A DNA stretch of 48,453 nucleotides. It comes from a virus. Of this stretch, positions 1,343-33,583 are shown one piece after another. Within the stretch, counting starts at the first letter, position 1. Every line of letters starts with the position of its first letter. Location of the stretch: the IMG/VR virus record IMGVR_UViG_3300027861_000005, one strand, 5' to 3'. The position numbers and the translations under genes were made by a program. A model generated the notes under the pieces. The model was not told the origin of the DNA. It saw only the letters and a program-made list of their open reading frames with translations, and ran no database searches.

Positions 1343-1354
1343 GATTTCGGTTCC

Positions 1355-3309: not shown

Positions 3310-3310
3310 T

Positions 3311-3790: not shown

Positions 3791-3798
3791 ATTTAACC

Positions 3799-4230: not shown

Positions 4231-4265
4231 GAAAACTGCCCACAGTAAAGGGAATTTAACGTAAC

Positions 4266-4655: not shown

Positions 4656-4677
4656 AGTTGCCGCCAGAAGACTGAAG

Positions 4678-4724
4678 GGAAAAATAAAGCAAGAAAGGTA
4701 ACCCGGCGATTAAACCGGATTACC
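4678..4724 (-). terminator. Intrinsic terminator directly after the major capsid gene
   Basis: Minus strand reads GGTAATCCGG-TTTAATCG-CCGGGTTACC (10-bp stem with one G-U pair) followed by TTTCTTGCTTTATTTTT. Confidence 0.7.
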
Positions 4725-4735
4725 ATTCATTTGAA

Positions 4736-5809: not shown

Positions 5810-5824
5810 CGTGAGTCAGCCTTT

Positions 5825-6598
5825 TTAAGAAGTTTTAGAGGATTCCAACAAGGTTTGGAACGCCTCTGGCTGATCACGCTTCATTCTGACAAGTTCACCC
5901 GAATTGTAGTCGTTATACGTTTTCGGTGATCCGTCGTCTTTGGTGGTAGCCAGAGTTGTTGATTTACCATCACCGTTGGCGCTACCACCCGATGCTTTGC
6001 TCACGACCACCATAGATTTGAACATTTCATTTGTCGAGAGAGACTTTTGGAAATTTTCAAAACTCTGATCAATCGAAGGTAGATTTGTAGCAATATCTGT
6101 AATTTCAATGGATGCTTGGCCCTCTGCCGAAACTTTACCTTTCAACATACCCTGAACATGAGGCAGCATAATGGCAGCATTTGTGCCGAACAATTCAGAT
6201 GCTATTGTCAACGCTTTCTCGCGGGCCATTCGATCTGCATTATTTTGACGTTGTGCAGCCAATTCAACTTTCTGTTTTTCTTCTGCTGCCTTTGCGGCTG
6301 CGTCTCTTGCGTCCAACTGCGATTGAAAATGCTCCTTCAATTCAGCAACGCTTTTTATTCCATCTATCTCTGTTTGCTTCTTTTCTGCCTCAAATTTATC
6401 CGCAACAGCTTTCACTGTTTTTAGTTCTTCTCGCGTTTTTTCCAACGCAGAAAATAATCCTTCAGGGTCTTTGTCTGTGGTAAAGACATTTGGTCCTAGA
6501 TCAAGTTTATAAGTACCATCGGTGGTCAACTGATACTCTTTTTTTAGATCATCAGAAATTGCAGTAAACTCAGCAGTTGTCAATGTTAACGCAAGCAT
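5825..6598 (-). CDS. Scaffolding protein
   Basis: 257 aa, rich in Ala/Glu/Lys and coiled-coil-like (AAKAAEEKQKVELAAQRQ). Lies between the portal and capsid genes. Confidence 0.7.
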   Translation of the reverse strand: MLALTLTTAEFTAISDDLKKEYQLTTDGTYKLDLGPNVFTTDKDPEGLFSALEKTREELKTVKAVADKFEAEKKQTEIDGIKSVAELKEHFQSQLDARDAAAKAAEEKQKVELAAQRQNNADRMAREKALTIASELFGTNAAIMLPHVQGMLKGKVSAEGQASIEITDIATNLPSIDQSFENFQKSLSTNEMFKSMVVVSKASGGSANGDGKSTTLATTKDDGSPKTYNDYNSGELVRMKRDQPEAFQTLLESSKTS

Positions 6599-6608
6599 TG
6601 GTTCTCAC

Positions 6609-8108
6609 TTAATTTGTAAGGTCTTCAGCCTTAGAGTTAGGTTGATCTTTTGCCGACGCTGGCTCAAGATCTGGATTTATTGAATCGATAAATGATTGAT
6701 CTGCTTTGATTGCAGCCATCGCATCTTCTACACTGTTCTTAACTAAACCGCTTCGTCGTAAATTTTCATGAACTCCAGAAAACGGTATAAGTCTTGCACC
6801 AAATAGTTCGATCAACCAACGAAGTTCTTCGGCGCTCATTGAAGTAAGATCAAAATTGTCATTTAACTCAACTTCGATTTCTTCATCCCCGGTGGTATCG
6901 ACGAATAAGGCGGCCTTCTTCAAACATGAGAGCAAAGCCGCTTCCAAGTTATCTTTAATGGTACTTAAAACAGATTTTTGGCTCGCTGCCTCAATCTGGA
7001 TCTCTGCTTCTTTCCGTTCAACAGTCTGCCGTGGATTGATGATTTTTGCACCAATTGCAATCATCTGTTCTTCCTTGTGGGTCATTGCTTCAAACGCGAG
7101 CGTATTTGGCATTGCCTGCAACAAGTGTGCTGTAGCGTCTTCGGGTAGCGGAACAGCGGCACGAGAACCGAAAGGTATTCCTTTCTGAAAATGATTGGTT
7201 ACCCAATCGTCGGTCAAACCTGCATACACAGGTGTTGGTTGACCGACAAGAAAAACACTTTCTTCGTAGTCGGCTGAATTGCGATAGTGTGCGATGTTCA
7301 AAACCGCCATTGAATACAACGGTGGTTCGTCAATCTCTGAATCGTTGTTTTCACTACCAACAAACTCAAATGGAATTTCACCCAGATTTTTACCGTCTTG
7401 CCCACACAGGTTGTAGGCTTCCTTGAGATCTCCACTTTCTTCATCCCACACTTCGACGCTTACACAACCATCTTCCAGCAGTCGATATACTCGATACTTG
7501 TGCGAGGTCTGTACTTTGAAACTGTCGTAACCCGAAGTATATTCATAAGCCTCTTTTAAAACCAACATAACCAACTTATGTTCGGTTTTAATTTTGGTAA
7601 TTTGCCAGTTAATAATAGCCCAAGGTGGGATAAATCGAATCGTCGGACGGATGCCACTTTCAACGTCGGCTTTAGTGACCTCCCCATCTGTTACGGGAAA
7701 GTCTGCGAGTAATCCACCACGACCGTAAGGTAGAATATGGTTGGCTGCTTTTCGAACCAACTGTTCGAAACTTAAACCTTCACCGTTGATATCTTCCAAC
7801 ATCATTTCCATGCTTTTTGGAACCTTCACTTTAGGTTCTCGAAGGAACAGTTGGCCGACTAAAGCATCTTGAGTAGGTTTAATCACGTTGTAGTAAACTG
7901 CTCGCATTTTGTAAGACGCATAACGCTCCAGTTTTTCTGTTTGACTGTCGCACGAAGACGGCATTGGCAGGTAAGTCACCCCTTTATCTTTAACTGCGAG
8001 TTCCCCTTCAAGCGAATCGCTAATAATGTTATATTTCTTTCTTGCTTGAACCAACTCTGGACGTTCGACGTTACATTTTAATGCTTTCGTAGTCATCAAT
8101 GTGCCCAA
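6609..8108 (-). CDS. Portal protein
   Basis: 499 aa, directly downstream of the large terminase gene and overlapping it by 13 nt. Confidence 0.8.
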   Translation of the reverse strand: MGTLMTTKALKCNVERPELVQARKKYNIISDSLEGELAVKDKGVTYLPMPSSCDSQTEKLERYASYKMRAVYYNVIKPTQDALVGQLFLREPKVKVPKSMEMMLEDINGEGLSFEQLVRKAANHILPYGRGGLLADFPVTDGEVTKADVESGIRPTIRFIPPWAIINWQITKIKTEHKLVMLVLKEAYEYTSGYDSFKVQTSHKYRVYRLLEDGCVSVEVWDEESGDLKEAYNLCGQDGKNLGEIPFEFVGSENNDSEIDEPPLYSMAVLNIAHYRNSADYEESVFLVGQPTPVYAGLTDDWVTNHFQKGIPFGSRAAVPLPEDATAHLLQAMPNTLAFEAMTHKEEQMIAIGAKIINPRQTVERKEAEIQIEAASQKSVLSTIKDNLEAALLSCLKKAALFVDTTGDEEIEVELNDNFDLTSMSAEELRWLIELFGARLIPFSGVHENLRRSGLVKNSVEDAMAAIKADQSFIDSINPDLEPASAKDQPNSKAEDLTN

Positions 8109-9787
8109 TTCATTTTGATTTTAGTGATGAACTTATTTGAACCCTTGAGAACGCGATATCTTACTGCGTCCCAAAGATGATCTTCTGCGTCTGTGTCAAC
8201 ATCATCTGGCTTATCTGGATCTCTCGGCAAGGGCGGTAGTAACTCAACACAGTGTTTACAATTCCGCATAAAGTAAATGCCCGGACCTTCCAGTAACGTA
8301 GAAGCCTGTAAACGGTCTCGCATTAATTGTAAACCAATTATTCTTGAACCCGCCGACTTATCAGACTGAATCCAACGAACACCTTCCTTTTCCATTTTGT
8401 ATTCAATGGTGTCAACATCAGATTCGGTCACGTTTCGAATTTGATTATCTGCCGGTCCCGCTTGAACCCTAGATTTAATCCACTGCTCGGAAAATAAAAC
8501 TTCCTCTTTCGATTTAATTCGCAAAGCAACATCTTTTGCCGACAATTTCAAACCTTTATTTGTATTCACATTCTCAGTGCCATAATCTTCCTCAATTGCA
8601 ATCAAACTTCCTCTAGGCGGGCACCAAGTTTTACCATTCGGCAATCTGACTTCTTCCCCGTTCGCTTCTGCCCAAAACACTGTCGCAAACGGATGCGTTG
8701 AGCCCCAGTCAAACGACCTGTCAACTTTCCATTCGACGGGAATTTGAAACCGATCAATAACATGAACACGGGTGTCCCAAACATCATTTATTGCACCGCC
8801 ACTATTGACGTCCCAACGTCCTTCAATCCACGCAGCATGTAAATTTGGATTGTTTGCGCAAGATTCGATGAGGCCCGCGCGGTACACAGGGTCAAGGTAC
8901 GGATTCTCAAAGAACGATCCAAAAATTGCAACTTGCGTTCTAATTACTTCAACTTCTTGGCCTGCCGACGTATCAAAATAGGTTACGCGGTTCTTTACAA
9001 TCTCTCCGTTCTTTGCAACATCGATAAATCTTCGTTTTACCCAATTGTGCCCCGGCCCATTTGGATTTGTGGTGGCGAAAACTTCCAGCGATATAGGCGG
9101 CAAGGGTTTTTGATCGGGAGTGTCGTAAACGGGTTGTCCGTTTTGCAAAATCGTAGGTGTATGTTTCTCTGAGACAAATGAGCAGCGATTTACTGACATA
9201 AACTTGTCATACAGTTCTGCGGTTGGTTGCTTCGTCAACTCATTCCAGCCAATAAACGGGTATTCATGCCCGTGAAACGCATCGTAATCATCCAATTTTT
9301 TAACATGCCTGAACAGCAATTCTTCACCTGTTGGCCACACCCATTTGTATGCTGTTGCAGATGCGTGAAACTTCGCGCCGTCTTCAAACTTTGGAAAGAA
9401 CCTATTGCTCTGTGCGACCATGTCTGACAGATTCTTAAATTCCCGGTCAAAGATGATGCCTTTCCAGTAAGCACCATAACCCAACCCAACCCTACTTCGA
9501 AACCGCATTAACTGCGTTATCGTTTTGCCCGGACCTCTGGCACCGTGCATCAGCGTGTGGTGGGCTCGCGTCACAATTGCGAATGATTGCGACGAATCTG
9601 GAATAGGTTCCCACACTACATTTGAAGCTATCGTTGATTCAACTTGGGGTTTCTTTACTGGTTTCAACACCTGTAAGGTTGAATCTTGGGCAGGTGCGTG
9701 CGCAGACAATCTATCAACAACAGCCGAGAGGTTGCCCGCCCCTGTTTGCTGTGGCGAATCTAAAATTTGTCCCCATTCTCTACCCAT
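8096..9787 (-). CDS. terL: Terminase large subunit
   Basis: 563 aa with Walker A GARGPGKT near the N-terminus, a C-terminal nuclease-like region (FDWGSTHPFA) and the expected gene order. Confidence 0.88.
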   Translation of the reverse strand: MGREWGQILDSPQQTGAGNLSAVVDRLSAHAPAQDSTLQVLKPVKKPQVESTIASNVVWEPIPDSSQSFAIVTRAHHTLMHGARGPGKTITQLMRFRSRVGLGYGAYWKGIIFDREFKNLSDMVAQSNRFFPKFEDGAKFHASATAYKWVWPTGEELLFRHVKKLDDYDAFHGHEYPFIGWNELTKQPTAELYDKFMSVNRCSFVSEKHTPTILQNGQPVYDTPDQKPLPPISLEVFATTNPNGPGHNWVKRRFIDVAKNGEIVKNRVTYFDTSAGQEVEVIRTQVAIFGSFFENPYLDPVYRAGLIESCANNPNLHAAWIEGRWDVNSGGAINDVWDTRVHVIDRFQIPVEWKVDRSFDWGSTHPFATVFWAEANGEEVRLPNGKTWCPPRGSLIAIEEDYGTENVNTNKGLKLSAKDVALRIKSKEEVLFSEQWIKSRVQAGPADNQIRNVTESDVDTIEYKMEKEGVRWIQSDKSAGSRIIGLQLMRDRLQASTLLEGPGIYFMRNCKHCVELLPPLPRDPDKPDDVDTDAEDHLWDAVRYRVLKGSNKFITKIKMNWAH

Positions 9788-15489: not shown

Positions 15490-15840
15490 TTATATCCTGC
15501 TTTGGTACTGAGCGTTAAAGTCTCTTTGCCGCTTTAATCGCATCATGTAACGAAATAAAGGTACGAATCGCGGCCAATTGGTTAAGTCAAACGTATTACC
15601 TCCGTGAACCACACCCTTATGGCAAATAAAGCATAAAGTAACGCCGTTATGCAGTAGGTATGCTTGATCTGGAAACTTAGACTTGGGCTTTATGTGATGA
15701 ACCTCAAGCGGACCACCGACACGTCGGCACATTTGACAAGTGCCCGCATCGCGAAGGCGGCACGCCTTTGACCATTTTCGAAGTCGATAGGTGTTGAAGA
15801 TCACCATTGAGCTAAAATCTCGCCCCCGGAACGAGTACAA
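15490..15840 (-). CDS. HNH endonuclease
   Basis: CQMC...EVHHIKPKS...NGVTLCFICH is a canonical HNH motif. The start is uncertain (TTG at 15840 or an internal ATG). Confidence 0.8.
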   Translation of the reverse strand: MYSFRGRDFSSMVIFNTYRLRKWSKACRLRDAGTCQMCRRVGGPLEVHHIKPKSKFPDQAYLLHNGVTLCFICHKGVVHGGNTFDLTNWPRFVPLFRYMMRLKRQRDFNAQYQSRI

Positions 15841-16721: not shown

Positions 16722-16784
16722 TCACAATGACGACACTATGTCGTCACAATGATGACACTGCAACGTAGTCACAATGATAACACT
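16722..16784 (-). repeat. Three 16-bp direct repeats of TCACAATGAYRACACT (minus sense AGTGTYRTCATTGTGA)
   Basis: Copies at 16722-16737, 16744-16759 and 16769-16784, spaced 22 and 25 bp apart, directly downstream of the stop at 16783. Confidence 0.85.
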
Positions 16785-16965
16785 ATTTACTATCTACTGG
16801 AGTCAAGTCTAATGGCTTTCCTGTTGTCAATTCGCACCACGTGTCGCTGCCCTCTGCGCACCACACGCCGTTGACCTTCACCAATCCGTCCGAGTTTGTT
16901 TCGCTTGTGTTACAACCACAACACAACACAACACAACACAACACAACACAATAAATCTTCAGCAT
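16783..16965 (-). CDS. Small lipoprotein-like or secreted protein (60 aa)
   Basis: The ATG at 16965 is preceded by TTGAAAGGTTTGAT, the same box used by early genes. N-terminus MLKIYCVVLCCVVLCCGCNTSE resembles a signal peptide. Confidence 0.65.
   Translation of the reverse strand: MLKIYCVVLCCVVLCCGCNTSETNSDGLVKVNGVWCAEGSDTWCELTTGKPLDLTPVDSK
16917..16951. repeat. Perfect pentanucleotide microsatellite, (CACAA)7 on the plus strand, (TTGTG)7 in coding sense
   Basis: Counted directly. It lies inside the signal-peptide codons CVVLCCVVLCC. Confidence 0.95.
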
Positions 16966-17371: not shown

Positions 17372-17406
17372 ACCTAATATAAATATTTGTTCCACAATTT
17401 TAATTC

Positions 17407-17697
17407 TTGAGACTGAATCTCAATACTAAATTATCTTCACAATATATCACAATTGATACTCAATCTCAATATAACAATTCTCGCACAATAAATCGATATT
17501 GAGACTTAATCTCAATATTCAATATTCTCAAATAAAATCAAAATTGATACAGAATCTCAATATCAATTTTTCTTGCAAGAATTCAATATTGAGACTTAAT
17601 CTCAATATTAAACTATCTTCAAAATAATCACAATTGATACTGAATCTCAATATTGTAATTTTGAATCATTTTTATACTATTGAGACTTAATCTCAAT
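17407..17697. repeat. Array of seven 19-23 bp palindromic sites (ATTGAKAC-N-AATCTCAAT) at about 45-bp intervals, forming 3.5 copies of a ~91-bp unit
   Basis: Sites at 17407-17425, 17453-17471, 17496-17518, 17544-17562, 17586-17608, 17634-17652 and 17679-17697. TTGAGAC and TTGATAC versions alternate. Confidence 0.9.
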
Positions 17698-17949
17698 GTG
17701 CGGTATTCTGAAGGTATCCCCAATATTGAGGTTGTGTGGATCGTTCAAAGGGATTCCCACAATATATGGGGGGGACGTCCTATCGATTGTAAATTACATC
17801 GCCGAACACGGATAAAAAAACGGCAAATTAAGATTATTTTCGCTGTTTTCCGCTCGCAATCAACCAAAAATTGTGATAAAGGCCTGCGCCGTTTTTTCAT
17901 TCGGCTGGAGTAAATGGTATCATTTTTGTAACGGTGCGATATCGATCTA

Positions 17950-18032
17950 TTGTGGGGCCCCACAACGTCGTACGAGGGTATCTTTCAGCAAATACACACC
18001 GTTGTGGGTATCTTTCTTGCGAGACCCCACAA
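17950..18032 (+). promoter_or_regulatory. Two hairpins/palindromes built from the same arm, TTGTGGG(G)/(C)CCCACAA, in the long leader of the rightward arm
   Basis: TTGTGGGGCCCCACAA at 17950-17965. TTGTGGG at 18002-18008 pairs with CCCACAA at 18026-18032. GGGTATCTTTC is also duplicated. Confidence 0.6.
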
Positions 18033-18172
18033 GCAAATAACAAAGCGAAATCGTCAATTTTAAATTCTTTCGATTATTCTTTCCAAATTGTATCCACTAG
18101 GCTTGTGTCATTGCCGATATTAACTATACTGGGAGACATGAGAAGCAAACAACAAAAAACGAAAGGCGAACA

Positions 18173-18481
18173 ATGAAACTGGCAGAACAATTTGCCAGGA
18201 AGATCAAAACGATACAATTGCAAGAAATCGTTTTTTTCGAAGATCTTCCGAGAGAATGGCAGAAAGAAGCGGAGTCGAATTTAGGCGACCTGGCAGGGGA
18301 CGCCAGATTTTTCATGCCTGGCAAGAACCAGAATCCAGAATCGCATGTCTTGTGGGATTTGACGGAGTGTATGAGAGTGGAATCCAAAGAAATGGACGGA
18401 GTGATCGGAATCTCCAATGGTAGCGCATTGGCAGTTTGCTTGATCGACGATGAAACCGCTATAACATGGTTGTTGGGATAA
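18173..18481 (+). CDS. Early protein, hypothetical
   Basis: 102-aa ORF with GAAAGGCGAACA upstream of the ATG. Confidence 0.65.
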   Translation: MKLAEQFARKIKTIQLQEIVFFEDLPREWQKEAESNLGDLAGDARFFMPGKNQNPESHVLWDLTECMRVESKEMDGVIGISNGSALAVCLIDDETAITWLLG

Positions 18482-18561
18482 ATTTTCGAATTCTTGAATT
18501 TCTGATTGAAAGGTGCGCATGCCTATGGGCTGAGTTACCCACAACTAAACTCTAATCCTAT

Positions 18562-18613
18562 AGAATTCTTAATCGGGGGACCGCTTACGGGCGGTCTGAG
18601 ATTGTGAATTCTT
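18562..18613 (+). repeat. Intergenic stem-loop element E1
   Basis: AGAATTCTTAATC..GACCGC-ttacgg-GCGGTC..AGATTGTGAATTCT. Confidence 0.8.
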
Positions 18614-18631
18614 ACTGAGGAAAGGGATACG

Positions 18632-18790
18632 ATGAATCAGACGGCGGAATTTTACCGGTCGCAGATCAGGATCATGCAAGCGGAAATGGGATATTGTGTT
18701 ATTCCGGAATATCGCGAACGATTGGACGATCTGCATTTTAGGGTAGCGATGCGATATTGTGCATGGCTAGGGCAAACAGGATCGGCATAG
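18632..18790 (+). CDS. Early protein, 52 aa (MNQTAEFYRSQIRIMQAEMGYCV...)
   Basis: Read directly, below the ORF-track size cutoff. GAGGAAAGGGATACG precedes the ATG. Confidence 0.55.
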   Translation: MNQTAEFYRSQIRIMQAEMGYCVIPEYRERLDDLHFRVAMRYCAWLGQTGSA

Positions 18791-18837
18791 AATGCCGAAT
18801 CAAGGATATCTGCGGATATCCGAGATTGTGAATTCTT
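18789..18837 (+). repeat. Intergenic stem-loop element E2
   Basis: AGAATGCCGAATC..GGATATC-tgcg-GATATCC..AGATTGTGAATTCTT. Confidence 0.8.
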
Positions 18838-18867
18838 ACGAAATCGAAAGAAGGGAAACAAGAAACT

Positions 18868-19134
18868 ATGGCAAGAATTGAAAAAATGTCCACACCGGGT
18901 GGCAATCCGTCACAAAATCAGACAATTCATCATGATGATGAAAAATCGGTTTTTATTAGCCATGGAACCAAAATTGCCGAAATTGCCGAAAGTAACCGCG
19001 TTACTTTGGATCGGTCTCATTGGGATTATTCTGCGACTACCGGAAAATATCGGAATAAATTTCTGAACGAAGGGATTGCCGAAACACGAAAAAAAATCGC
19101 ATCAGGGGAATACAAATTAACAAACCTGAATTGA
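18868..19134 (+). CDS. Early protein, hypothetical
   Basis: 88-aa ORF with AGAAGGGAAAC upstream. Confidence 0.7.
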   Translation: MARIEKMSTPGGNPSQNQTIHHDDEKSVFISHGTKIAEIAESNRVTLDRSHWDYSATTGKYRNKFLNEGIAETRKKIASGEYKLTNLN

Positions 19135-19146
19135 AAGGTACAGATT

Positions 19147-19323
19147 GTGGAAGAAAAAATTGACGAAATTGTGTATGGAATTGCGAATCTCAGCAAACGC
19201 GACATTGTCGCGCTACGAGATCATTGCAAAGATCGGAGTGAAGATTTTGAGAGGGATTATATTGTGCGACCGATCTACCGGAAATTTTCTCAGATTTTGG
19301 GAATAATCATCCGAACATACTAA
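19147..19323 (+). CDS. Early protein, 58 aa, GTG start
   Basis: TTGAAAGGTACAGATT-GTG. Read directly, below the ORF-track cutoff. Confidence 0.5.
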   Translation: MEEKIDEIVYGIANLSKRDIVALRDHCKDRSEDFERDYIVRPIYRKFSQILGIIIRTY

Positions 19324-19371
19324 GAATCCAGAACCATAGGCAATTGCGATTGCCTATCATTGTGAATTCTT
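19322..19371 (+). repeat. Intergenic stem-loop element E3
   Basis: AAGAATCCAGAACC-ATAGGCAAT-tgcg-ATTGCCTAT-CATTGTGAATTCTT. Confidence 0.85.
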
Positions 19372-19397
19372 GACACTAGAATTGAAAGGTACAGACT

Positions 19398-19616
19398 GTG
19401 ATTATGAAGAGCGCAGAAATATGGGCGCGATTTGTCGCGCTGAAGAAATTGGTTGAAAATGAACCGAATGCAAGCGATGATCGTGCCGATGAATTCGGCA
19501 AGGAATGGGAATTCCTCTACGATGCAGCGTGTGACGAATCAGATCATGATGGTAGTGAATTAACCGATGCACAGTATGATGAAATTTGCAAGTATGATGC
19601 GTTTTGGATCGATTGA
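19398..19616 (+). CDS. Early acidic protein
   Basis: 72 aa, strongly Asp/Glu-rich, with TTGAAAGGTACAGACT-GTG upstream. Confidence 0.65.
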   Translation: MIMKSAEIWARFVALKKLVENEPNASDDRADEFGKEWEFLYDAACDESDHDGSELTDAQYDEICKYDAFWID

Positions 19617-19628
19617 AAGGATAGAATT

Positions 19629-19904
19629 GTGGAATTATTGAAAATTGGAACGGTGGTCAAACCATCGGTAGGTGCGTTGCGCAACAAACGCGATGCAATC
19701 GGACAAGCTGGAACATACGCGAAAAAAAATCTTTGCCAAAAATGGTATGATGATGAAAAGGCAAAGCGCGGAAAAATCACAAATGTAGCAAAAAAAGAAT
19801 ATGGTTCGCATTATGTCATTGAATGGGATTCTGGATCAATTTCTTACACTGCCACATATTTGGTAGTTGACGCAAATCAGAAAGAATATGGGGATACGGA
19901 ATGA
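19629..19904 (+). CDS. Early protein, hypothetical
   Basis: 91 aa, with TTGAAAGGATAGAATT-GTG upstream. Confidence 0.65.
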   Translation: MELLKIGTVVKPSVGALRNKRDAIGQAGTYAKKNLCQKWYDDEKAKRGKITNVAKKEYGSHYVIEWDSGSISYTATYLVVDANQKEYGDTE

Positions 19905-20149
19905 AAACATACAACAATACAACAATGCCGAATATCGAAAGATTGATTGAATCTGTGTTGCACCCTATCAAAAAAGGAAAAAACAATTGGAGAAAACGAA
20001 ATATCACATTGTACGAACATCCGCGCGATATGCGAAAAGTAGTTTCGGAGGGAATATCGTTTGATGGAAAATTGAGAATAATTGCTGAAGAATCTTTGAA
20101 TGATTGGTCGAGAGAATTGTCTCAATCTGGAAATTTTGTCACAAATTGA
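19901..20149 (+). CDS. Early protein, hypothetical
   Basis: 82 aa, with an ATGA overlap onto the upstream gene. Confidence 0.65.
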   Translation: MKTYNNTTMPNIERLIESVLHPIKKGKNNWRKRNITLYEHPRDMRKVVSEGISFDGKLRIIAEESLNDWSRELSQSGNFVTN

Positions 20150-20151
20150 TT

Positions 20152-20197
20152 GAATCCGTATCCCTGCCCAATTGCGATTGGGTAGCATTGTGGATTC
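20152..20197 (+). repeat. Intergenic stem-loop element E4
   Basis: GAATCC..CCCAAT-tgcg-ATTGGG..ATTGTGGATTC. Confidence 0.75.
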
Positions 20198-20226
20198 CAT
20201 TAAACTAAGAAATTGAAAGGATAAGA

Positions 20227-20622
20227 ATGTCTGTAAATCCGTCCAACGAATTTTACAATGGCAATTTGTGTAAAATCTATTATGCTGAAATTTTACACGC
20301 CTGTGTTGATTGTGAAGCCAATCCGTTTACAATGCGAAATCTAAACGCAAATGATTATCGTGTTATCGCATTGTGCGTCAATTTGGGTATAGATTCGCAT
20401 CTTGAAGCAATTTTTAATGCGAATGAAGAAATCAGATCGGACGGAAATTGTGACCTATCGCCAGAAAATTTGTGTGTCCTGCTAAGAAGGTTGAGCGAAT
20501 ACAATTTCTCAACCGATGATGATTATGATTCGGCGCACGGATTGGTTGATAGTATTCTGACAGTCTTAGGATTTGATGATTGTGGTCGATATGTCGGTCG
20601 CGTGGCAATGGGATTGGAATAA
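20227..20622 (+). CDS. Early protein, hypothetical
   Basis: 131 aa, with TTGAAAGGATAAGA-ATG upstream. Confidence 0.7.
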   Translation: MSVNPSNEFYNGNLCKIYYAEILHACVDCEANPFTMRNLNANDYRVIALCVNLGIDSHLEAIFNANEEIRSDGNCDLSPENLCVLLRRLSEYNFSTDDDYDSAHGLVDSILTVLGFDDCGRYVGRVAMGLE

Positions 20623-20638
20623 TCCGCAAAAATGTGTC

Positions 20639-20667
20639 TTGACATAGGATTCGCAGGTTGTTACAAT
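20639..20667 (+). promoter_or_regulatory. Sigma70 consensus-like promoter, TTGACA-17 nt-TACAAT
   Basis: TTGACA at 20639-20644, a 17-nt spacer and TACAAT at 20662-20667, about 40 nt upstream of the ATG at 20708. Confidence 0.65.
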
Positions 20668-20707
20668 TGTGATAGACAAAAACAAACAAAAAAGGAAGAT
20701 TTGAATA

Positions 20708-20914
20708 ATGACTAATTGGCACCAAGCAAACGCAATCAGAACAAACTATCGAAACCGAAAAAAAGCCGCGCATATTGTCGATAATTCCCGATATGGTTTT
20801 TTTGCATTGTGTGGAGAATCTTACCCAATTGTAACGGTTAATAAAGAATACGCTGACAATCTGGAGAACGGAACCTGCAAGAAATGTTTGAAAAAACTAC
20901 AATCCGAACGATAG
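20708..20914 (+). CDS. Early protein, hypothetical
   Basis: 68 aa, with AAAGGAAGATTTGAATA-ATG upstream. Confidence 0.65.
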   Translation: MTNWHQANAIRTNYRNRKKAAHIVDNSRYGFFALCGESYPIVTVNKEYADNLENGTCKKCLKKLQSER

Positions 20915-20951
20915 AACTACGAAATAAAACAACAAACAAGAAAGGGAAAGA

Positions 20952-21299
20952 ATGACACACACATACACACAGAAAATTGCTGTACGGAATTACGTCTACG
21001 GATTAACATTTTGGGAATCCCTTGGCGAATTCGAAAGGGAATTGAGCAATCTGGATCGCGCAGAATCCCTGTGGGATGCAATTGAAAGATATTGGCCGAA
21101 TGCTGCCCGATGTTATGAGATTATCATTAGTCTGAAAACGGACATTTCAAACATCGACGAAAAAAAGTGGTTACATGAGGCATTTCGAAATGAAGTATGC
21201 CGATTGGTAACTATGAATACGGAATCGATCAAGAATTCCGGTATGCCGGAAGACATGACAATCAGGATGATGATTGACATGCTATGTCCGAAATGGTAG
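20952..21299 (+). CDS. Early protein, hypothetical
   Basis: 115 aa, with AGAAAGGGAAAGA-ATG upstream. Confidence 0.7.
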   Translation: MTHTYTQKIAVRNYVYGLTFWESLGEFERELSNLDRAESLWDAIERYWPNAARCYEIIISLKTDISNIDEKKWLHEAFRNEVCRLVTMNTESIKNSGMPEDMTIRMMIDMLCPKW

Positions 21300-21307
21300 T
21301 GTAAACT

Positions 21308-21358
21308 AAGAATCCAGAACCCGCTATATCTAAGAGATATGGCGCATTGTGAATTCTT
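21308..21358 (+). repeat. Intergenic stem-loop element E5
   Basis: AAGAATCCAGAACC-GCTATATCT-aag-AGATATGGC-GCATTGTGAATTCTT. Confidence 0.8.
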
Positions 21359-21408
21359 GAGATTGAAAGGATAGGATGATGAACAAATTAGCGACCTAAT
21401 TTGCGGAA

Positions 21409-21699
21409 TTGCTGACGGCATTGATACCGGACATTGGCGACGAATATCGGGCATCGGAAGATCCTGATGATGATACGCCGGGAATGTGTGTTACATTCGG
21501 TGCAAATACAAGAATGCCGGGTGAATCGTGGGATTGGTCATATCAGACCGGCGACAATTCATACACGGGTGGCGCGTACGGATATCCTCATTGGGGAGTT
21601 TGTTACCTTTACCGGGATTCAGACGTCAACGAATTGGCGGAATGTGCGGCAGGCGAGATTTTGGATGTCATTGCATGGGAAGGAAATGCGTACCGATGA
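21409..21699 (+). CDS. Early protein, hypothetical. The start is unresolved (see the finding on the in-frame TAA)
   Basis: 96-aa ORF. The properly positioned ATG at 21376 is in the same frame but separated from it by TAA at 21397. Confidence 0.55.
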   Translation: MLTALIPDIGDEYRASEDPDDDTPGMCVTFGANTRMPGESWDWSYQTGDNSYTGGAYGYPHWGVCYLYRDSDVNELAECAAGEILDVIAWEGNAYR

Positions 21700-21923
21700 A
21701 AATTGCACATTTTATGAACGGCGGATTCGTTCTGCATGGAATCACAGGCGATTTCAAGGGAAGGGTATCTGCATGGTATGACAAGGAAGGAAAATTGATC
21801 GATTGCGAACAATATCCTAGTATTGCCAATGTGCGATCAATCAAGCGAAACGGACCAATGTGGCAATTGTGCGAGAAACTAGGGAATCGACACAAACATA
21901 CTCCAATCACAGGAAGCAATTAA
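21696..21923 (+). CDS. Early protein, hypothetical (75 aa)
   Basis: ATGA overlap with the upstream stop. I trimmed it from ORF 21528-21923. Confidence 0.6.
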   Translation: MKIAHFMNGGFVLHGITGDFKGRVSAWYDKEGKLIDCEQYPSIANVRSIKRNGPMWQLCEKLGNRHKHTPITGSN

Positions 21924-21925
21924 GG

Positions 21926-22279
21926 ATGAAATGGCCGAAAGATCAGATTGAGATTTACAAGAATGCAGTCGCGCAGGTTATTGAATCAACAGGTAAATCG
22001 GCAGAAGAAATCAGAAAAGAGTATGCTTTCGCGCCAACAATGCGGATCATGTTTGAAATTGATCGGATTGTGTGTTACGATGCACAATATGACAACAATC
22101 ATCCTGCGTACCATGAGACAATACAAGACGGAAAAACATTTAAGGCAAGAATTCGACGATGCAAGCACAATCCTGATTTTGTGCTGTATCCAAGGGGATG
22201 CGACGACACACATAAAGCCACAATGCTACGGCATGTAGGGACTGAACTAGGTTTAATTCTAAGAAAGGGTAAGAAATGA
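21926..22279 (+). CDS. Early protein, hypothetical (117 aa)
   Basis: ATG at 21926 just after the upstream stop. I trimmed it from ORF 21860-22279. Confidence 0.6.
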   Translation: MKWPKDQIEIYKNAVAQVIESTGKSAEEIRKEYAFAPTMRIMFEIDRIVCYDAQYDNNHPAYHETIQDGKTFKARIRRCKHNPDFVLYPRGCDDTHKATMLRHVGTELGLILRKGKK

Positions 22280-23205
22280 CCAAAGCAAAGAAGAAAATGA
22301 CCAAGCGAAAGATCGGGATTGATACCCACACAAGTAAGCTGACCGTAGAGAATACGGGATTGGTGAGCAAATGCCATACTGCTTCGGGCTGGAATGTGGA
22401 AACCAATTGTGGTACAGAATTTGTGGGTGACGATTGTGTAATTATGCGAGACGACGAATATGATGGAATGAGGAAAGACGAGTTATATGAATTGTTTTGC
22501 GACTATGTGGAAGGATCGGAAATTTATCATTGTACCTATGTCGATGAATGGCACGCTTATTGGGATATGCCGGGATACATGGATCGTGGATCGATCTACT
22601 CTGGTGAAACGGAAGTCGCAGCGATTGTAGATTTGCTGGAATCCAATGAATCAGAAGAATCAAATATAGATGATTGGTGCATGGCAGCAATTGAACGATT
22701 GGTGCAGATTCACAATGATTCCGAAGATGATAATATCCGGGAAGAATGTCTTTCGGCAATTTGCTGGCATTTACCCAGCGAATCCGTAGATTTTCGTCCA
22801 GAAGTATTGTGCAACAATACAGATTTGATATATTCAGGGGATTGCAATCCGATCGATCATGACGGACGATGGATTGATACGCGGGATTGGGCAGAACATG
22901 GATATGCTTCCTGCGTAGGAATTTGTAGTTATGACAATTTGATTGACATTGAATTCGGCACAATCAACAAAACAGGAACATTGGCAGAAATGGCTACATG
23001 TTACGGGATTGATGTTGACGAGATCACAATGCACCATAAAATTGATTATGCACATTCTCAATTTGGGGCAGAGAATGGCGACAATCCAGAACGATTTACT
23101 CGCCTTGATGATTCCGGCTGGTTTCTGGATGACGGGAACGAATTGGTAGCAGAGTCGACGATTGAAGCACGATTGATCGAATTGGTGAAGGGATTGGCAG
23201 AGTAG
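22276..23205 (+). CDS. Large acidic early protein
   Basis: 309 aa, Asp/Glu/Cys-rich. ATGA overlap at its start. Ends ...LIELVKGLAE. Confidence 0.75.
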   Translation: MTKAKKKMTKRKIGIDTHTSKLTVENTGLVSKCHTASGWNVETNCGTEFVGDDCVIMRDDEYDGMRKDELYELFCDYVEGSEIYHCTYVDEWHAYWDMPGYMDRGSIYSGETEVAAIVDLLESNESEESNIDDWCMAAIERLVQIHNDSEDDNIREECLSAICWHLPSESVDFRPEVLCNNTDLIYSGDCNPIDHDGRWIDTRDWAEHGYASCVGICSYDNLIDIEFGTINKTGTLAEMATCYGIDVDEITMHHKIDYAHSQFGAENGDNPERFTRLDDSGWFLDDGNELVAESTIEARLIELVKGLAE

Positions 23206-23254
23206 AATGCTGAATCGATGGCGCGAGATCGGCGCGCCAGAGATTGTGAATTCT
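23204..23254 (+). repeat. Intergenic stem-loop element E6
   Basis: AGAATGCTGAATC..GGCGCG-agatcgg-CGCGCC..AGATTGTGAATTCT. Confidence 0.8.
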
Positions 23255-23287
23255 ATGATCTATGAGAAGATATGAAAGGCGAAACGA

Positions 23288-23461
23288 ATGACATATCGTC
23301 AGTTGATTGACCAACTGGAGAAGTTGGCAGAAGAGCAGTTAGATTGTGTTGTTACTGTTGAAGATCCTCATGAGGATGAATGTCGTGCCGCAGAACTACG
23401 AATCTGTGGTGACGGTCACGACAGCCTTACCGATAATCATCCTGTGATTTTTGTACCTTAA
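23288..23461 (+). CDS. Early protein, 57 aa (MTYRQLIDQLEKLAEEQLDCVVTVEDPHEDEC...)
   Basis: Read directly. ATGAAAGGCGAAACGA-ATG upstream. Confidence 0.55.
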   Translation: MTYRQLIDQLEKLAEEQLDCVVTVEDPHEDECRAAELRICGDGHDSLTDNHPVIFVP

Positions 23462-23559
23462 GGAAAATTCAGAATTCGGACGAAGCCCCTGCGACAACCA
23501 ATGACGAAGAAATTACAGAAGAGGAATTCATTGATTTGGTGAAGGGATTGGCATCATGA
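23437..23559 (+). pseudogene. Start-less open frame ending ...EEEFIDLVKGLAS. Either a remnant or the frameshift extension of the preceding gene
   Basis: The frame is open from 23437 with no ATG/GTG/TTG. Its stop overlaps the next ATG (ATCATGA). It shares TTGGTGAAGGGATTGGCA with the 3' end of 22276-23205. Confidence 0.35.
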
Positions 23560-23867
23560 TAATTGCTAGTGCATACACGGAGATTGTTGGCGCAGTAGAA
23601 GCATACGCTGACAATCTAGGGATTGATCCGGCTTTGATTCTGGAATGCGACGATCAGAAATGCGAAGAATCAGGTAGATGCACTGCGTGTAACATACCGT
23701 CCGAATTGATCAAGCTGTTCGTAGATAATCAGACAGAATTTGTCGACGAACTATATCAGGAATTGTATTTACTGGTGAATGGTCGGTATGTGTCTGGTGA
23801 TACGGCAAAACGGTCGCAGGCTTGCCATGAATACTCAAACGGCAGACTAGAAATGTGGGTAGGCTAA
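23556..23867 (+). CDS. Early protein, hypothetical
   Basis: 103-aa ORF. Confidence 0.65.
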   Translation: MIIASAYTEIVGAVEAYADNLGIDPALILECDDQKCEESGRCTACNIPSELIKLFVDNQTEFVDELYQELYLLVNGRYVSGDTAKRSQACHEYSNGRLEMWVG

Positions 23868-23868
23868 T

Positions 23869-23919
23869 AAAATGCTGGATCGATCCTGCGAGACCGGCGC
23901 AGGAGAGATTGTGGATTTT
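23869..23919 (+). repeat. Intergenic stem-loop element E7
   Basis: AAAATGCTGGATC..CCTGCG-agaccgg-CGCAGG..AGATTGTGGATTTT. The basal pairs covary relative to the other copies. Confidence 0.8.
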
Positions 23920-23945
23920 ACGGCAGGGTAAGAAAGGATAAGATT

Positions 23946-24137
23946 ATGATAAAATGCTTTCCGAAGTATTCATGGATGGTGCAAGTACGACCGAAACCGT
24001 TAAACTCGGAAGACTATAACGTCAAGTATGAAATCGTATTTGGTGGTCTGCCGGGGTATCATGTGGCGAAAGCAGCAGCGGACGAATTGGAATCAAATCG
24101 ATCCGATTTACAGATTTATGTTTGTCAAAACAACTAA
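23946..24137 (+). CDS. Early protein, hypothetical
   Basis: 63 aa, with AGAAAGGATAAGATT-ATG upstream. Confidence 0.6.
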   Translation: MIKCFPKYSWMVQVRPKPLNSEDYNVKYEIVFGGLPGYHVAKAAADELESNRSDLQIYVCQNN

Positions 24138-24149
24138 GAAAGGGAAAGA

Positions 24150-24356
24150 ATGAGATACCATATAATTGTAGGAAACATCGGAACAGTAGAACGAGTTAAG
24201 AGCCCTATTGTTGCTGCTAGAATTTACGGACAGTACAAAGAACTGTCCAAAGGAAAATATGGACGAGCCTCCGGCGAGTCTGTAACAATATTCGACACAC
24301 ATAAAGATTGTGTAGCTCTCGAATATGTGGGGACCAATGAAAGGGATGCAGAATGA
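24150..24356 (+). CDS. Early protein, hypothetical
   Basis: 68 aa, with AGAAAGGGAAAGA-ATG upstream. Confidence 0.65.
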   Translation: MRYHIIVGNIGTVERVKSPIVAARIYGQYKELSKGKYGRASGESVTIFDTHKDCVALEYVGTNERDAE

Positions 24357-24619
24357 CAATCACAGACAGAATCAACCAGGCTGCAAGTGGGGAACATCTT
24401 GACGGCGTCATGATCTACTGGGATACCGCTGCCGTTGGAGATGAGGGTACAGCGTATCGAGATGGCGAGGAATCAGGGGCATTGGAGTTCACTGGCTGGG
24501 GTGGCGAGGCGGACGGCAGTGAAGACGACACTTACCACGTGAGCAACTACTTCGGCGCGGATGGCAAGTACCTCGGGCCAGATAAACATGGCGTGTACCC
24601 ACAGTTTCAAACCATTTAA
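24353..24619 (+). CDS. Early acidic protein
   Basis: 88 aa, with an ATGA overlap. Confidence 0.65.
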   Translation: MTITDRINQAASGEHLDGVMIYWDTAAVGDEGTAYRDGEESGALEFTGWGGEADGSEDDTYHVSNYFGADGKYLGPDKHGVYPQFQTI

Positions 24620-24631
24620 CTAAGGACAGCA

Positions 24632-24889
24632 ATGATTTCTGAATCCTACGCTGTGACTCCGTATGGTTTCCGGCAGGGGAATCGTCGTGTGATCGTCAAC
24701 GCCGCCGCACAATGGACGTCAGACGGTCAGACGAGACTGATACAGGCAGTGGAAAACCTTGACGAATTCTCATGGATCGGCAGGACATTTGCCAGACCGA
24801 CAAATCCGGCAGACGCAGAGTATTGGGATAGTATTTTTTGGATGCTCGTCGAATCAGGCGGGATGGAACAAAGGACCATTGAAAGGTAA
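24632..24889 (+). CDS. Early protein, hypothetical
   Basis: 85 aa, with AAGGACAGCA-ATG upstream. Confidence 0.65.
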   Translation: MISESYAVTPYGFRQGNRRVIVNAAAQWTSDGQTRLIQAVENLDEFSWIGRTFARPTNPADAEYWDSIFWMLVESGGMEQRTIER

Positions 24890-24900
24890 AGAATAAGAAA

Positions 24901-25002
24901 ATGACCGACAAGACAACACATTTATTTTGTGCAGCATTGACCTGTTCACTTGTCCTCATTCTGTGGGCATCGTTTCAATTACTGACAATAACGTTTGAAT
25001 GA
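24901..25002 (+). CDS. 33-aa single-TM peptide (MTDKTTHLFCAALTCSLVLILWASFQLLTITFE)
   Basis: Read directly. Its stop overlaps the next ATG (GAATGA). Confidence 0.4.
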   Translation: MTDKTTHLFCAALTCSLVLILWASFQLLTITFE

Positions 25003-25760
25003 AAGCACTGAGAATGAAAATTAAAATTAAAGAAAATGCAATGGCTAAGTATTGGAATCCAAAATGCCAAGGACAATATATTCCTACCAAGGAAGAAAGA
25101 ACTCATGCCGATAAGCTGGAAGCCATTCAAGGGATGACGATAGAAGTCAAGACAGATTTTTTGTTCTGCGACCAATACAACACCAAGCCAATAGAAGGAG
25201 TGAGCGACCAAGGTATGCGGATCATGGAAGCCTCTGTGTCGGAAGTGATTGACGATATTCGGGATACGGTAGGCAAATGTCCTTATTGTGGACACCATAC
25301 GCCCGGTAAAATCGACGGCTTCTGTGAGTCTTGTCTGGATTCCTCTTATCTTGACGAGCAAACTATAAAACGCGGTGGTACTCGCATTCGACCAGTGGAC
25401 GCCAAGCAAAACCGGGAAAAATGGGAAGAATTAACGCAGGAAGAATGGGACATGCTGAAACCTCAGTATGTCAAGCGACAGACCACAGGCAAAGACAGCC
25501 GGAATGCTGAGAAGCTGAGAAAGCAGCGGGCAAGGTTGCATTCTGACCATAAAGCCAAAACAGAAGCACTTGACATTGAACGGGACGGTATGATTTGGTT
25601 GATGGACAACAACATCAGCGTTGAAAACTGCATCTATTACAGTCACCGAAAGGTATTTTGTTTTGGATGGCGCAACAAGATTAGCAAGGGAGTTAAGAAA
25701 GTACTAGACACCAAATTGCAAGGTTTTCCATTCCAGACAGATTTTAAGGTTGAAAGGTAG
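24999..25760 (+). CDS. Hypothetical protein with a zinc ribbon (CPYCGH...CESC)
   Basis: 253-aa ORF. Confidence 0.7.
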   Translation: MKALRMKIKIKENAMAKYWNPKCQGQYIPTKEERTHADKLEAIQGMTIEVKTDFLFCDQYNTKPIEGVSDQGMRIMEASVSEVIDDIRDTVGKCPYCGHHTPGKIDGFCESCLDSSYLDEQTIKRGGTRIRPVDAKQNREKWEELTQEEWDMLKPQYVKRQTTGKDSRNAEKLRKQRARLHSDHKAKTEALDIERDGMIWLMDNNISVENCIYYSHRKVFCFGWRNKISKGVKKVLDTKLQGFPFQTDFKVER

Positions 25761-25764
25761 AGCA

Positions 25765-26127
25765 ATGCTTTACACAGAAATTCACACAGCGTTACAAATT
25801 GAGGATTATCCGCTAGGCGGCAGAAAACGCGGCATTGCTCGCTACAGAGTGACGACAGAACCAAGGCAAGGCAAACTGCAACGGGTGGAGCGGACAACTG
25901 AACACAATAATCAAGTTTCTAAGGCTCGCAAATTGACATACGGCAAGCGTGCAGCCATACTGGTCGGTGCGGACGGTCGCGTTTATCCTGTGGTATGGTC
26001 TCAGCATTACGAAGTGTTCTCGGTCTACAAGAGCAACATGCAACACTCAGAGGAAACGATCAGCAAGGATGAAAAGCCGAACGAATACGCGAACATGAAA
26101 GCCAGATTTGAAAGTATGGCAGAATAA
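25765..26127 (+). CDS. Hypothetical protein
   Basis: ATG at 25765 after TTGAAAGGTAGAGCA. I trimmed it from ORF 25750-26127. Confidence 0.65.
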   Translation: MLYTEIHTALQIEDYPLGGRKRGIARYRVTTEPRQGKLQRVERTTEHNNQVSKARKLTYGKRAAILVGADGRVYPVVWSQHYEVFSVYKSNMQHSEETISKDEKPNEYANMKARFESMAE

Positions 26128-27315: not shown

Positions 27316-27411
27316 TAACAGTTGTCTGTTGCTGATAATCAACAGGTGATATCGAGCCCAACTGATATTTTTATTGGTTGGGTTTTTTCTTTATTCGTTC
27401 AGGGGATTAAA

Positions 27412-31715: not shown

Positions 31716-31898
31716 ATGCTAGTTTTGTCACGAAAGATTAACCAAAAAATTATAATTAACGATGACATTGTCGTTACAATAGTAAATATAAAAGGCGATC
31801 AAGTGAAACTTGGCATCAAAGCACCAAGTGACATTACTGTATATCGCGAAGAAGTTTATAAAGCGATCTTAAAGGAAATGGAGGACATAAATAAATGA
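31716..31898 (+). CDS. csrA: CsrA-family RNA-binding translational regulator
   Basis: [51 protein letters not shown] aligns along its whole length with E. coli CsrA [57 protein letters not shown] lies 5 nt upstream. Confidence 0.85.
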
Positions 31899-33515: not shown

Positions 33516-33583
33516 TCGATCCCTTGTCGGGGTGACCGGCTAACGATGGTGCCCCCTTACATTATTGTTAGTCGGTCATTTTT

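Follow-up and report, generated by a model that had tools for sequence, protein, structure and literature searches.

Seven related hairpins between the early genes of a tailed phage

The IMG/VR virus record IMGVR_UViG_3300027861_000005 is a stretch of 48,453 nucleotides, referred to throughout as the window, and its early region is punctuated by seven related intergenic hairpins, E1 to E7, which are the subject of this study. The window is a tailed-phage genome (48.4 kb, 44% G+C) that encodes a portal protein, a large terminase, a capsid-like protein, a tape-measure protein and tail proteins, as well as a DNA polymerase, an NrS-1-type primase-polymerase, a helicase, a single-strand binding protein, a Cas4-like exonuclease and a methyltransferase; no tRNA genes were found in it. 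Small genes on the minus strand stop at about 17.3 kb, where a control region of 0.9 kb begins, and small genes on the plus strand then run from 18,173 up to a canonical terminator at 27,354-27,385. The E elements sit within this rightward cluster, 3' of the control region and 5' of the terminator.

All seven copies lie where the first-pass annotation had placed them, with ends differing by 1-2 nt, and all are on the plus strand: their 12-nt core, ATTGTGRATTYT, has seven exact occurrences on that strand and none on the other (with one mismatch allowed, 11 matches were found against 2.7 expected). Their intergenic position was likewise borne out, as no element falls inside an open reading frame (ORF) and every one is located between plus-strand ORFs. 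Nine intergenic gaps between 18.2 and 24 kb measure 70 nt or more, and seven of them have an element; one of the other two has the strong sigma-70 promoter (20,639-20,667) and the other a duplicated gene tail. Neither the leftward small-gene cluster nor the later plus-strand genes contain any E elements.

The elements keep a close relationship with the genes on both sides. The upstream stop codon lies within the 5' arm in E2, E3 and E6 and 1-8 nt before it in E4, E5 and E7, while E1 is preceded by a decayed cassette and not by a full gene. On the downstream side, 17-33 nt separate the end of an element from the next start codon, and the spacing to the GAAAGG ribosome-binding site is therefore only a few to about 20 nt; an initial estimate of 15-45 nt was too long.

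A three-tier fold with a constant base and variable tops

When treated as RNA, each copy is predicted to form the three-tier hairpin that had been proposed by eye, with a minimum free energy (MFE) of -17.4 to -24.7 kcal/mol. These folds are better than those of shuffled controls, with z between -3.5 and -6.1 and only 0-1 of 200 dinucleotide shuffles folding equally well. From the bottom, the tiers are a lower stem (A-G-A-A-U / A-U-U-C-U), a small bubble, a mid stem of 4-5 bp, a 2x2 or 3x2 loop and a top of 7-10 bp. The two arms are symmetric (24/23, 22/22, 24/24, 21/21, 25/25, 23/23 and 23/23 nt for E1 to E7), which keeps the internal loops balanced and makes for a quasi-continuous helix of 21-25 rungs; the arms hold 17-21 pairs and 2-3 small internal loops, or about two turns of RNA helix.

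Conservation is unevenly spread over this structure, with a mean column identity of 64% across the seven copies and a shared motif of AGAAT.C...ATTGTGAATTCT. The bubble is invariant on its 3' side (G-U-G, then A or G), while the bases facing it on the 5' side vary; five copies have ATTGTGA at this point and two have ATTGTGG. The mid stem is AAUC/GAUU, replaced in E3 and E5 by two 2-bp steps. With respect to their base, E1, E2, E6 and E7 form one type and E3 and E5 another, with E4 intermediate. The top helices are unrelated in sequence among copies and are closed by a UACG loop (once), UGCG (three times), AAG (once) or AGAYCGG (twice). An early count of three UGCG tetraloops was thus correct as far as it went, but the UACG loop of E1 is also of the UNCG class, bringing the number of UNCG copies to four. 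Similarly, the tops are hairpins as described but not all perfect in the Watson-Crick sense, given that the top of E5 has a G-U pair and that G-U pairs lengthen those of E1 and E4.

A covariance model built from the seven copies (R1) scores them at 51.5-68.6 bits (E <= 1e-8) and, when run over the 48 kb window, finds no eighth copy, the other matches being weak reverse-strand echoes of the same sites. E1 (18562-18612; MFE -24.7, z -6.1, 51.5 bits) combines a 7-bp lower stem, AGAATTC/GAATTCT, with the mid stem TAATC/GATTG and the top GGACCGCT/GGCGGTCT under its UACG loop, and ends 20 nt before the ATG at 18632. E2 (18789-18836; MFE -17.4, z -3.5, 68.6 bits) has the base AGAAT..C / G..ATTCT, the mid stem AATC/GATT and the top GGATATC/GATATCC with a UGCG loop; its 5' arm is overlapped by the TAG stop of a 52-aa gene (TAG-AAT), and it ends 32 nt before the ATG at 18868. 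E3 (19321-19372; MFE -17.8, z -5.6, 62.1 bits) carries what we call the type B base, TAAGAATCCAGAACC / CATTGTGAATTCTTG, below the top ATAGGCAAT/ATTGCCTAT and a UGCG loop, and the TAA stop of a 58-aa gene lies within its 5' arm (TAA-GAAT). Its apex is shared with E4 (20152-20197; MFE -20.0, z -4.2, 55.9 bits), in which a 9-bp base including two G-U pairs, GAATCCGTA/TGTGGATTC, supports the top CTGCCCAAT/ATTGGGTAG and again a UGCG loop.

The type B base recurs in identical form in E5 (21307-21359; MFE -19.8, z -5.8, 55.8 bits), here with the top CGCTATATCT/AGATATGGCG, which holds its one G-U pair, and the AAG loop; the element ends 17 nt before the ATG at 21376. E6 (23203-23255; MFE -22.5, z -3.9, 59.2 bits) consists of the base TAGAAT/ATTCTA, the mid stem AATC/GATT and the top TGGCGCG/CGCGCCA with the loop AGATCGG, and its 5' arm includes the TAG stop of a 309-aa ORFan gene. 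Finally, E7 (23868-23920; MFE -20.8, z -3.9, 52.2 bits) has the base TAAAAT/ATTTTA, the mid stem GATC/GATT and the top TCCTGCG/CGCAGGA with the loop AGACCGG, and the upstream stop abuts its 5' arm (TAA-T-AAAAT).

Base pairing is under selection

The variability of the tops makes it possible to ask what has been preserved. In the model-guided alignment 86.6% of cells are paired, compared with 71.5% after shuffling partners, a value that none of 500 shuffles brought up to the observed one, and sliding the register by 1-3 columns reduces pairing to 24-50%. Eight pairs show changes on both sides. Closely related copies are particularly informative: between E6 and E7, three pairs of the top are different, all of them compensated (G-C to C-G twice, C-G to U-A) and none broken, and E3 and E4 differ at four pairs, of which three are compensated and one has gone from A-U to G-U. 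The basal pairs had been said to change jointly, and they do, with A-U in E7 where others have G-C and C-G in E4 where others have a mismatch. The suggestion that pairing is selected while the sequence of the top is free is hence supported by covariation, here among paralogues of one genome, and by double changes between sister copies. Pairing is under selection. Across the elements there are also ten G-U pairs on the plus strand, which argue for a single-strand fold as the selected form.

A candidate RNA processing element

Our tentative interpretation, and the one we favour, is that E1-E7 are cis-acting RNA elements in an early polycistronic transcript, with RNase III-type processing, which would split the operon mRNA into separately stable segments, as their most likely role. 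That the elements act as RNA at all is a broader proposition and a probable one, as four of the seven tops carry UNCG loops: such tetraloops are reportedly of exceptional stability in RNA (Tuerk et al. 1988), and they have no special stability in DNA. The phage probably depends on host enzymes for any such processing, since Pfam and PHROGs scans of the tested ORFs revealed no phage RNA polymerase, RNase, integrase or transposase; the only nuclease-type match noted in this search for a partner enzyme, again among the ORFs tested, was an HNH endonuclease at 15490-15840.

According to this processing model, host RNA polymerase would make a rightward early transcript that starts near 18.1 kb and ends at the 27.4-kb terminator, and each element would fold once a ribosome leaves the upstream stop codon, giving the helix of 21-25 rungs with its AU-rich, conserved lower stem, a small and symmetric bubble that never varies on its 3' side, (A)UUGUG(A/G)A, the mid stem, a 2x2 loop and a GC-rich top of free sequence under a stable loop. 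The conserved lower part would be the recognition and cleavage site of a double-strand-specific endonuclease, most likely host RNase III, and the top would need only to be a helix of the right length. A cut in or beside the bubble would then segment the operon mRNA: the upstream segment would end in a stable 3' hairpin blocking 3'-5' exonucleases, whereas the downstream segment would begin 17-33 nt before a start codon with an unstructured ribosome site. The outcome would be that the half-lives and translation of early gene groups become uncoupled. An invariant unpaired GUG with a varying opposite side is expected of a recognition or cleavage site and not of a mere helix.

In their size and internal loops, the elements fit what is known of the Escherichia coli enzyme. 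Its substrates typically comprise two helical turns, for which coaxially stacked short helices suffice, and cutting is confined to a single strand by internal loops, so that a protective 3' hairpin remains (PMC1540722). The proximal box of RNase III substrates consists of G-C, A-U/U-A, A-U and A-U/U-A, and the lower stem of the E elements, read toward the bubble, is G-C, A-U, A-U, U-A, which fits proximal-box positions 1-4 (PMC1540722) in base-pair composition only, with no UA/UG distal box evident.

The closest counterparts are the RNase III sites between the early genes of phage T7, a likeness already pointed out in the first-pass annotation. As an analogy it is reasonable, given the size of about two turns, the internal loops, the conserved lower helix and the fact that T7 hairpins follow the same pattern, but it does not extend to homology with the T7 sites. 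As a control, we folded and aligned the T7 early intergenic hairpins, which we take to be sites R0.3, R0.5, R1, R1.1 and R1.3 at the coordinates of Dunn and Studier 1983. Their flanks are conserved (CTCAAGG...GTGGCCTTTATGATT), their apex varies with compensation, one copy has a UGCG loop, and their mean column identity is 67% versus 64% for the E elements. In both phages several related hairpins of some 45-60 nt lie in sense orientation between small early genes of one host-transcribed operon, are followed by no U tract, and combine a conserved lower helix and bubble with a variable, compensated apex and apical tetraloops that include UGCG. On the other hand, the motifs differ (CTCAAGG...GTGGCCTTTATGATT in T7 versus AGAAT.C...ATTGTGAATTCT here), and model R1 gave no match to T7 positions 400-8000 at E <= 10. 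The E helix has three tiers and small symmetric loops where that of T7 has one larger asymmetric bubble, and the phage studied here is of siphovirus type and, unlike T7, has no RNA polymerase of its own.

Most of this evidence would be equally at home in a scenario in which the elements act in RNA but are not cleaved, serving as passive barriers to 3' exonucleases, as structural insulators, or as operators whose conserved base, with its GUG bubble, is read by an RNA-binding protein of the phage or the host. Such a scenario shares all the structural and positional evidence; stable UNCG-capped tops would suit a block to exonucleases, invariant unpaired 3' bases would suit sequence-specific protein binding, and some helices can be bound by RNase III itself yet left uncut (PMC1540722). 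We nevertheless regard it as unlikely, because a bare barrier requires a top hairpin only, which leaves the conserved lower and mid stems unexplained, and no RNA-binding domain was detected among the early proteins scanned. The regulator CsrA was considered as a specific ligand and rejected, the GGA motif of its binding sites being missing in E3, E5 and E6.

Several considerations weigh against RNA processing. Cleavage, the identity of the enzyme, RNA rather than DNA as the active form and co-transcription are all things we infer. The longest uninterrupted stem is 7-10 bp and the helices are interrupted, such that some bacterial RNase III might not cut them, and rules established in E. coli may not transfer to a host that is only probably proteobacterial. 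The strand argument stands at five to two: the plus-strand RNA is the more stable in five of the seven copies, but E3 and E5 fold better on the minus strand because their C-A mismatches become G-U pairs there. Single-stranded DNA (ssDNA) is also predicted to fold, with z of -3 to -6, and energies do not separate it from RNA. The palindromic tops could be kept partly by template switching or palindrome correction at the DNA level and not by selection on RNA. Lastly, a syntenic contig (L126) and other relatives manage without the elements, which implies that their function is dispensable or lineage-specific.

Termination, promotion and priming as alternative functions

A hairpin in an operon may also affect transcription itself, and the elements could be attenuators or pause sites, i.e., factor-dependent or weak terminators that a phage antiterminator overrides to grade early expression. 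The tops are indeed GC-rich, stable hairpins within one operon, the elements partition that operon into blocks, and the PeSL stem-loops of T4-type phages do terminate transcription (PMC2839356). However, no T or U tract follows the top, and 12-15 nt of conserved mixed sequence come before the only U-rich stretch; the conserved lower stem would be left without a role, and no antiterminator candidate was identified. We consider this the least probable of the explanations weighed here. That the elements are not ordinary intrinsic terminators, as had been noted from the start, was confirmed by two terminator scans in which none of the seven was called: the tail after the top is GAGATTGTGAATTC, whereas real terminators occur at 27354-27385 and at about 33540-33576, the latter likewise a stem plus T tract.

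Promoter activity was dismissed on similar grounds, as no promoter-like site overlaps any element on the plus strand and there is no usable -10/-35 pair; for the 3' arm in particular, inspection by eye showed that no copy has a -10 hexamer 16-18 nt after TTGTGA. Mini-ORFs that begin with the conserved GUG were also discarded: they have 3-17 codons, no conserved peptide and poor Shine-Dalgarno spacing. Finally, ATTGTG is about threefold in excess at window 18170-24000 outside the elements (21 observed against 6.8 expected), but we do not read this as a DNA signal, because almost all of the coding occurrences stem from Cys codons (xAT-TGT-Gxx, TTG-TGx) in the small Cys-rich early proteins.

A DNA-level role is suggested by a match with the literature. 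NrS-1 polymerase recognises 5'-GTG-3', with GTGA and GTGG as the most efficient sites (PMC8718748), and the E hairpins might act in ssDNA, where GTGA or GTGG in the bubble would present a start site for the NrS-1-like primase-polymerase on the lagging-strand template of a fork moving rightward from the iterons at 17.4-17.7 kb. The window's own primase-polymerase carries the NrS-1 HBD domain, the invariant bubble (GTGA in five copies, GTGG in two) equals the best NrS-1 sites (PMC8718748), all copies are on the would-be lagging template to the right of the origin-like palindrome array, and the predicted ssDNA folds (z -3 to -6) are compatible with it. If true, a tailed phage would here offer its archaeo-eukaryotic-type primase a structured, 'ssi'-like priming signal. 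Yet with about 12 GTG per kb on either strand there seems to be no need for special sites; the elements span only 5.4 kb and not the whole lagging template; and none are present in L126, whose primase-polymerase is 72% identical and whose gene order is the same. In DNA, moreover, UNCG loops lose their special stability. The GTGR match may be a coincidence, with an estimated chance of about 7% in a 12-mer, and the conserved arm of the T7 RNase III hairpins also contains GUGG. The choice of strand is confounded with the direction of transcription, as are both GC skew and GTGR skew with gene orientation, so that the origin is not placed independently of transcription. Taken together, we consider a priming role very unlikely.

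Distribution of the family

Exact-protein look-up traced the same phage to eight assemblies of different samples, among them a 48,469-bp contig matching the window. Contigs of the same species (L120-L125) carry identical copies and hence provide no covariation information. Outside the species, L126, a syntenic relative from a Tara sample whose primase-polymerase is 72% identical and whose gene order is the same, has neither a copy nor an analogous hairpin family. No E elements were found in relatives with DUF7303 at 50-58% identity (L126-L131, L150, L151) or in contigs that share the DUF8033 early gene (L152-L156, L158, L159), and searches of IMG/VR revealed no relatives for either the primase-polymerase or the 309-aa protein; the gene of the latter, next to E6, is an ORFan.

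Larger collections gave the same picture. A strict pattern derived from the conserved arms, which matches four of the seven copies, had no matches in IMG/VR, 6 in GTDB genomes and 12 in JGI metagenomes; those in GTDB and JGI were judged chance or unrelated coding sequence, as all score at most 31 bits and have no top helix. A loose pattern, AGAAT-N28-48-ATTGTGAATTCT, yielded 119 single matches in IMG/VR, which we also attribute to chance. Rfam 15 had no match at gathering score anywhere in the window, and between 17 and 28 kb only chance-level matches (E >= 0.2), none on any E element. As far as these searches can tell, the E family is confined to this one phage species and is lineage-specific. 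We conclude that the E family is real, rests on solid statistics and had not been catalogued before; its members are structured intercistronic elements of a kind already known from T7 and from bacterial intercistronic repeats.

Repeat-like behaviour and plasticity of the early region

The restriction of a multi-copy family to one lineage is also what would be expected of a DNA repeat spread by recombination or selfishly, in the manner of MITEs (miniature inverted-repeat transposable elements), REP sequences or PeSLs, in which case the elements would mainly supply homology for the shuffling of small genes and any effect on RNA would be secondary. Several observations fit. Copies are mosaic, with E3 combining the base of E5 and the apex of E4. 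Just upstream of E1, a solo 3'-arm remnant at 18488-18514 on the plus strand, GAATTCTTGA, is followed by a ribosome-site block, ATTGAAAGG, and a 4-codon ORF, and is 78% identical to the 3' flank of E3; we read it as a probable decayed copy or cassette. The element supplies stop codons, the region is plastic between strains, and PeSLs in T4-type phages offer a precedent (PMC2839356, PMC4122927).

A further point in the same direction is a 28-nt direct repeat (89% identical) at 23172-23199 and 23526-23553, which flanks E6 and a 57-aa gene as if a module had been inserted. The repeat encodes the C-terminal ...LVKGLA of the 309-aa protein, and its second copy ends a gene-tail remnant just before a 103-aa gene.

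Comparison with a divergent strain, by contrast, places the exchange points elsewhere. Relative to the window, L120 has an extra small gene inserted at 19,153 and lacks the 72-aa gene (19,390-19,611), and both junctions are in the ribosome-site block, ATTGAAAGGTA..GATTGTG, outside the elements. This block, in the form ATTGAAAGG(T/A)A..GA(T/C)TGTG, recurs at GTG-start genes (19124-19147, 19381-19400 and 19612-19631 in the window; 2530-2555 and 2727-2750 in L120), and gene cassettes seem to be exchanged at translation-initiation regions. Apart from this, there are no target-site duplications, no transposase or integrase among the ORFs scanned, and no copies in any other genome or metagenome scanned, and the interiors are wholly different yet paired through compensatory changes and G-U pairs, which would need selection on structure after copying. 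An origin as a mainly recombinational or selfish repeat thus appears distinctly unlikely. The narrower suggestion of a miniature palindromic mobile element is made less likely by the missing target duplications, the lack of copies elsewhere and the differing interiors. A typical MITE or REP repeat was rejected: inverted ends are present, but flanking direct repeats are not, interiors are unrelated and copies elsewhere are lacking.

Known repeat systems resemble the E elements to different degrees. PeSLs (PMC2839356, PMC4122927) are likewise repeated composite intergenic motifs among small ORFan early genes of a plastic region, with a variable-sequence stem-loop just upstream of the next ribosome site. 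The E elements differ in having no sigma-70 promoter joined to the stem-loop, no terminator tail, a conserved part that is the base of the hairpin, and indel junctions outside the elements. We therefore rejected an identity with PeSLs, as well as a PeSL-like crossover role, the insertion and the deletion in L120, the one divergent strain compared, both joining outside the elements. A separate family of repeats was observed in two unrelated contigs that share the DUF8033 gene (L156 at 380-8330 and L155 at 610-1550), in which a repeated AAAAAAGTTTT / AAAAA(A/T)GTTTT accompanies a variable hairpin with TTGACA in or at its loop; TAAGCT/TAGACT follows 17 nt later, and T-tract terminators often precede the repeats. 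We interpret these repeats as PeSL-like promoter hairpins.

Among bacterial elements, REP/BIME and the Correia elements of Neisseria are intercistronic repeats that shape mRNA, either as mRNA stabilisers or as RNase III substrates, with Correia processed by RNase III. Both they and the E elements are short imperfect palindromes that are repeated, intergenic or intercistronic and, presumably so in the E elements, co-transcribed. They are, however, chromosomal and come in tens to hundreds of near-identical copies, with TA target duplications in the case of Correia, whereas the E elements have seven copies in one phage, interiors that are not conserved, no target duplications and no copies in the bacterial genomes scanned (for a related review of MITEs, see PMC10969869).

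Integron attC sites also bear an architectural resemblance, being imperfect palindromes in a single orientation at the 3' end of small promoterless genes, with conserved outer boxes, inner boxes, a spacer left unpaired and a terminal structure that varies. An attC identity was nonetheless rejected: there are no RYYYAAC/GTTRRRY core sites and no GTTRRRY at the 3' end, the internal loops are symmetric in place of extrahelical bases, no integrase was found in the ORFs scanned, and the elements do not form the boundaries of the cassettes that differ between strains. Mycobacteriophage stoperators and the start-associated sequences (SAS/ESAS) of Cluster K phages are short, conserved, asymmetric intergenic motifs in one orientation near gene starts, ESAS consisting of paired inverted repeats with variable spacing. 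These are DNA or ribosome-proximal motifs without a compensated variable helix; in the E elements pairing itself is selected and the element is on the stop-codon side of the gap.

Other features of the early region

The control region between the divergent small-gene clusters contains, at window 17400-17735 in the gap of 0.9 kb, a palindrome array of about seven TTGAGACTTAATCTCAAT(ATT) sites, several with CACAATTGATAC before them, which are probably operators or origin iterons. Within the operon, the promoter at 20639-20667 on the plus strand is of sigma-70 type (TTGACA-17-TACAAT, TG-extended, 11/12 matches) and is the only strong one. The operon is closed on the same strand by the canonical intrinsic terminator at 27354-27393, in which a stem of 14 pairs (27354-27385) is followed by TTTCTTTATT. 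The sense strand of the early operon (window 18000-26000) is purine-rich, with a GC skew of +0.14 to +0.23 and an AT skew of +0.12 to +0.20, and the cumulative GC-skew minimum at about 18 kb coincides with the point where the direction of transcription switches.

Gene decay is seen at one small locus beside the elements and is possible at another. Window 18482-18560, between the 102-aa gene and E1, is the decayed cassette mentioned above, and its 4-codon ORF reads ATG CCT ATG GGC TGA. After E5, at window 21376-21423, a good ribosome site precedes an ATGATG that opens a 7-codon ORF ending in TAA at 21397-21399; this ORF is in frame with the 92/96-aa ORF that follows, called by gene finders from TTG at 21409 or 21421. 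A nonsense-interrupted gene is possible, and it occurs in all strains examined.

The phage also encodes a 60-aa CsrA homologue (Pfam PF02599) at window 31716-31898 on the plus strand. Early ribosome sites are mostly GAAAGGA(U), similar to the CsrA-bound A(N)GGA motif, and the protein might modulate translation of the phage's own early genes. On the minus strand, a (CACAA)n microsatellite occupies window 16912-16952, and a 57-nt intergenic gap at window 16726-16782 contains CATTGTGAC three times, the final GTG being the start codon of the next gene.

Implications for phage gene expression

The window has no DNA match among 50,697 deposited phages, and we describe its phage as marine, uncultured, of siphovirus type and without an RNA polymerase of its own. 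Its host is probably a proteobacterium, because its DNA polymerase shares about 44% identity with the enzymes of Klebsiella, Pseudomonas and Rhodobacter siphoviruses. With one phage species concerned and only a probable group for its host, the practical value of the finding is modest. Nevertheless, its seven natural variants, one base with seven tops, constitute a ready-made series for defining what a nuclease or binding protein reads. The E family also marks a very plastic, ORFan-rich region and may help to explain the gain, loss and differential expression of small early genes. If the elements are processing or stability signals, segmentation of mRNA by repeated hairpins with a conserved base would not be peculiar to T7-like podoviruses, but would have a separate origin in this uncultured marine phage of siphovirus type, for which host enzymes would have to do all the work.

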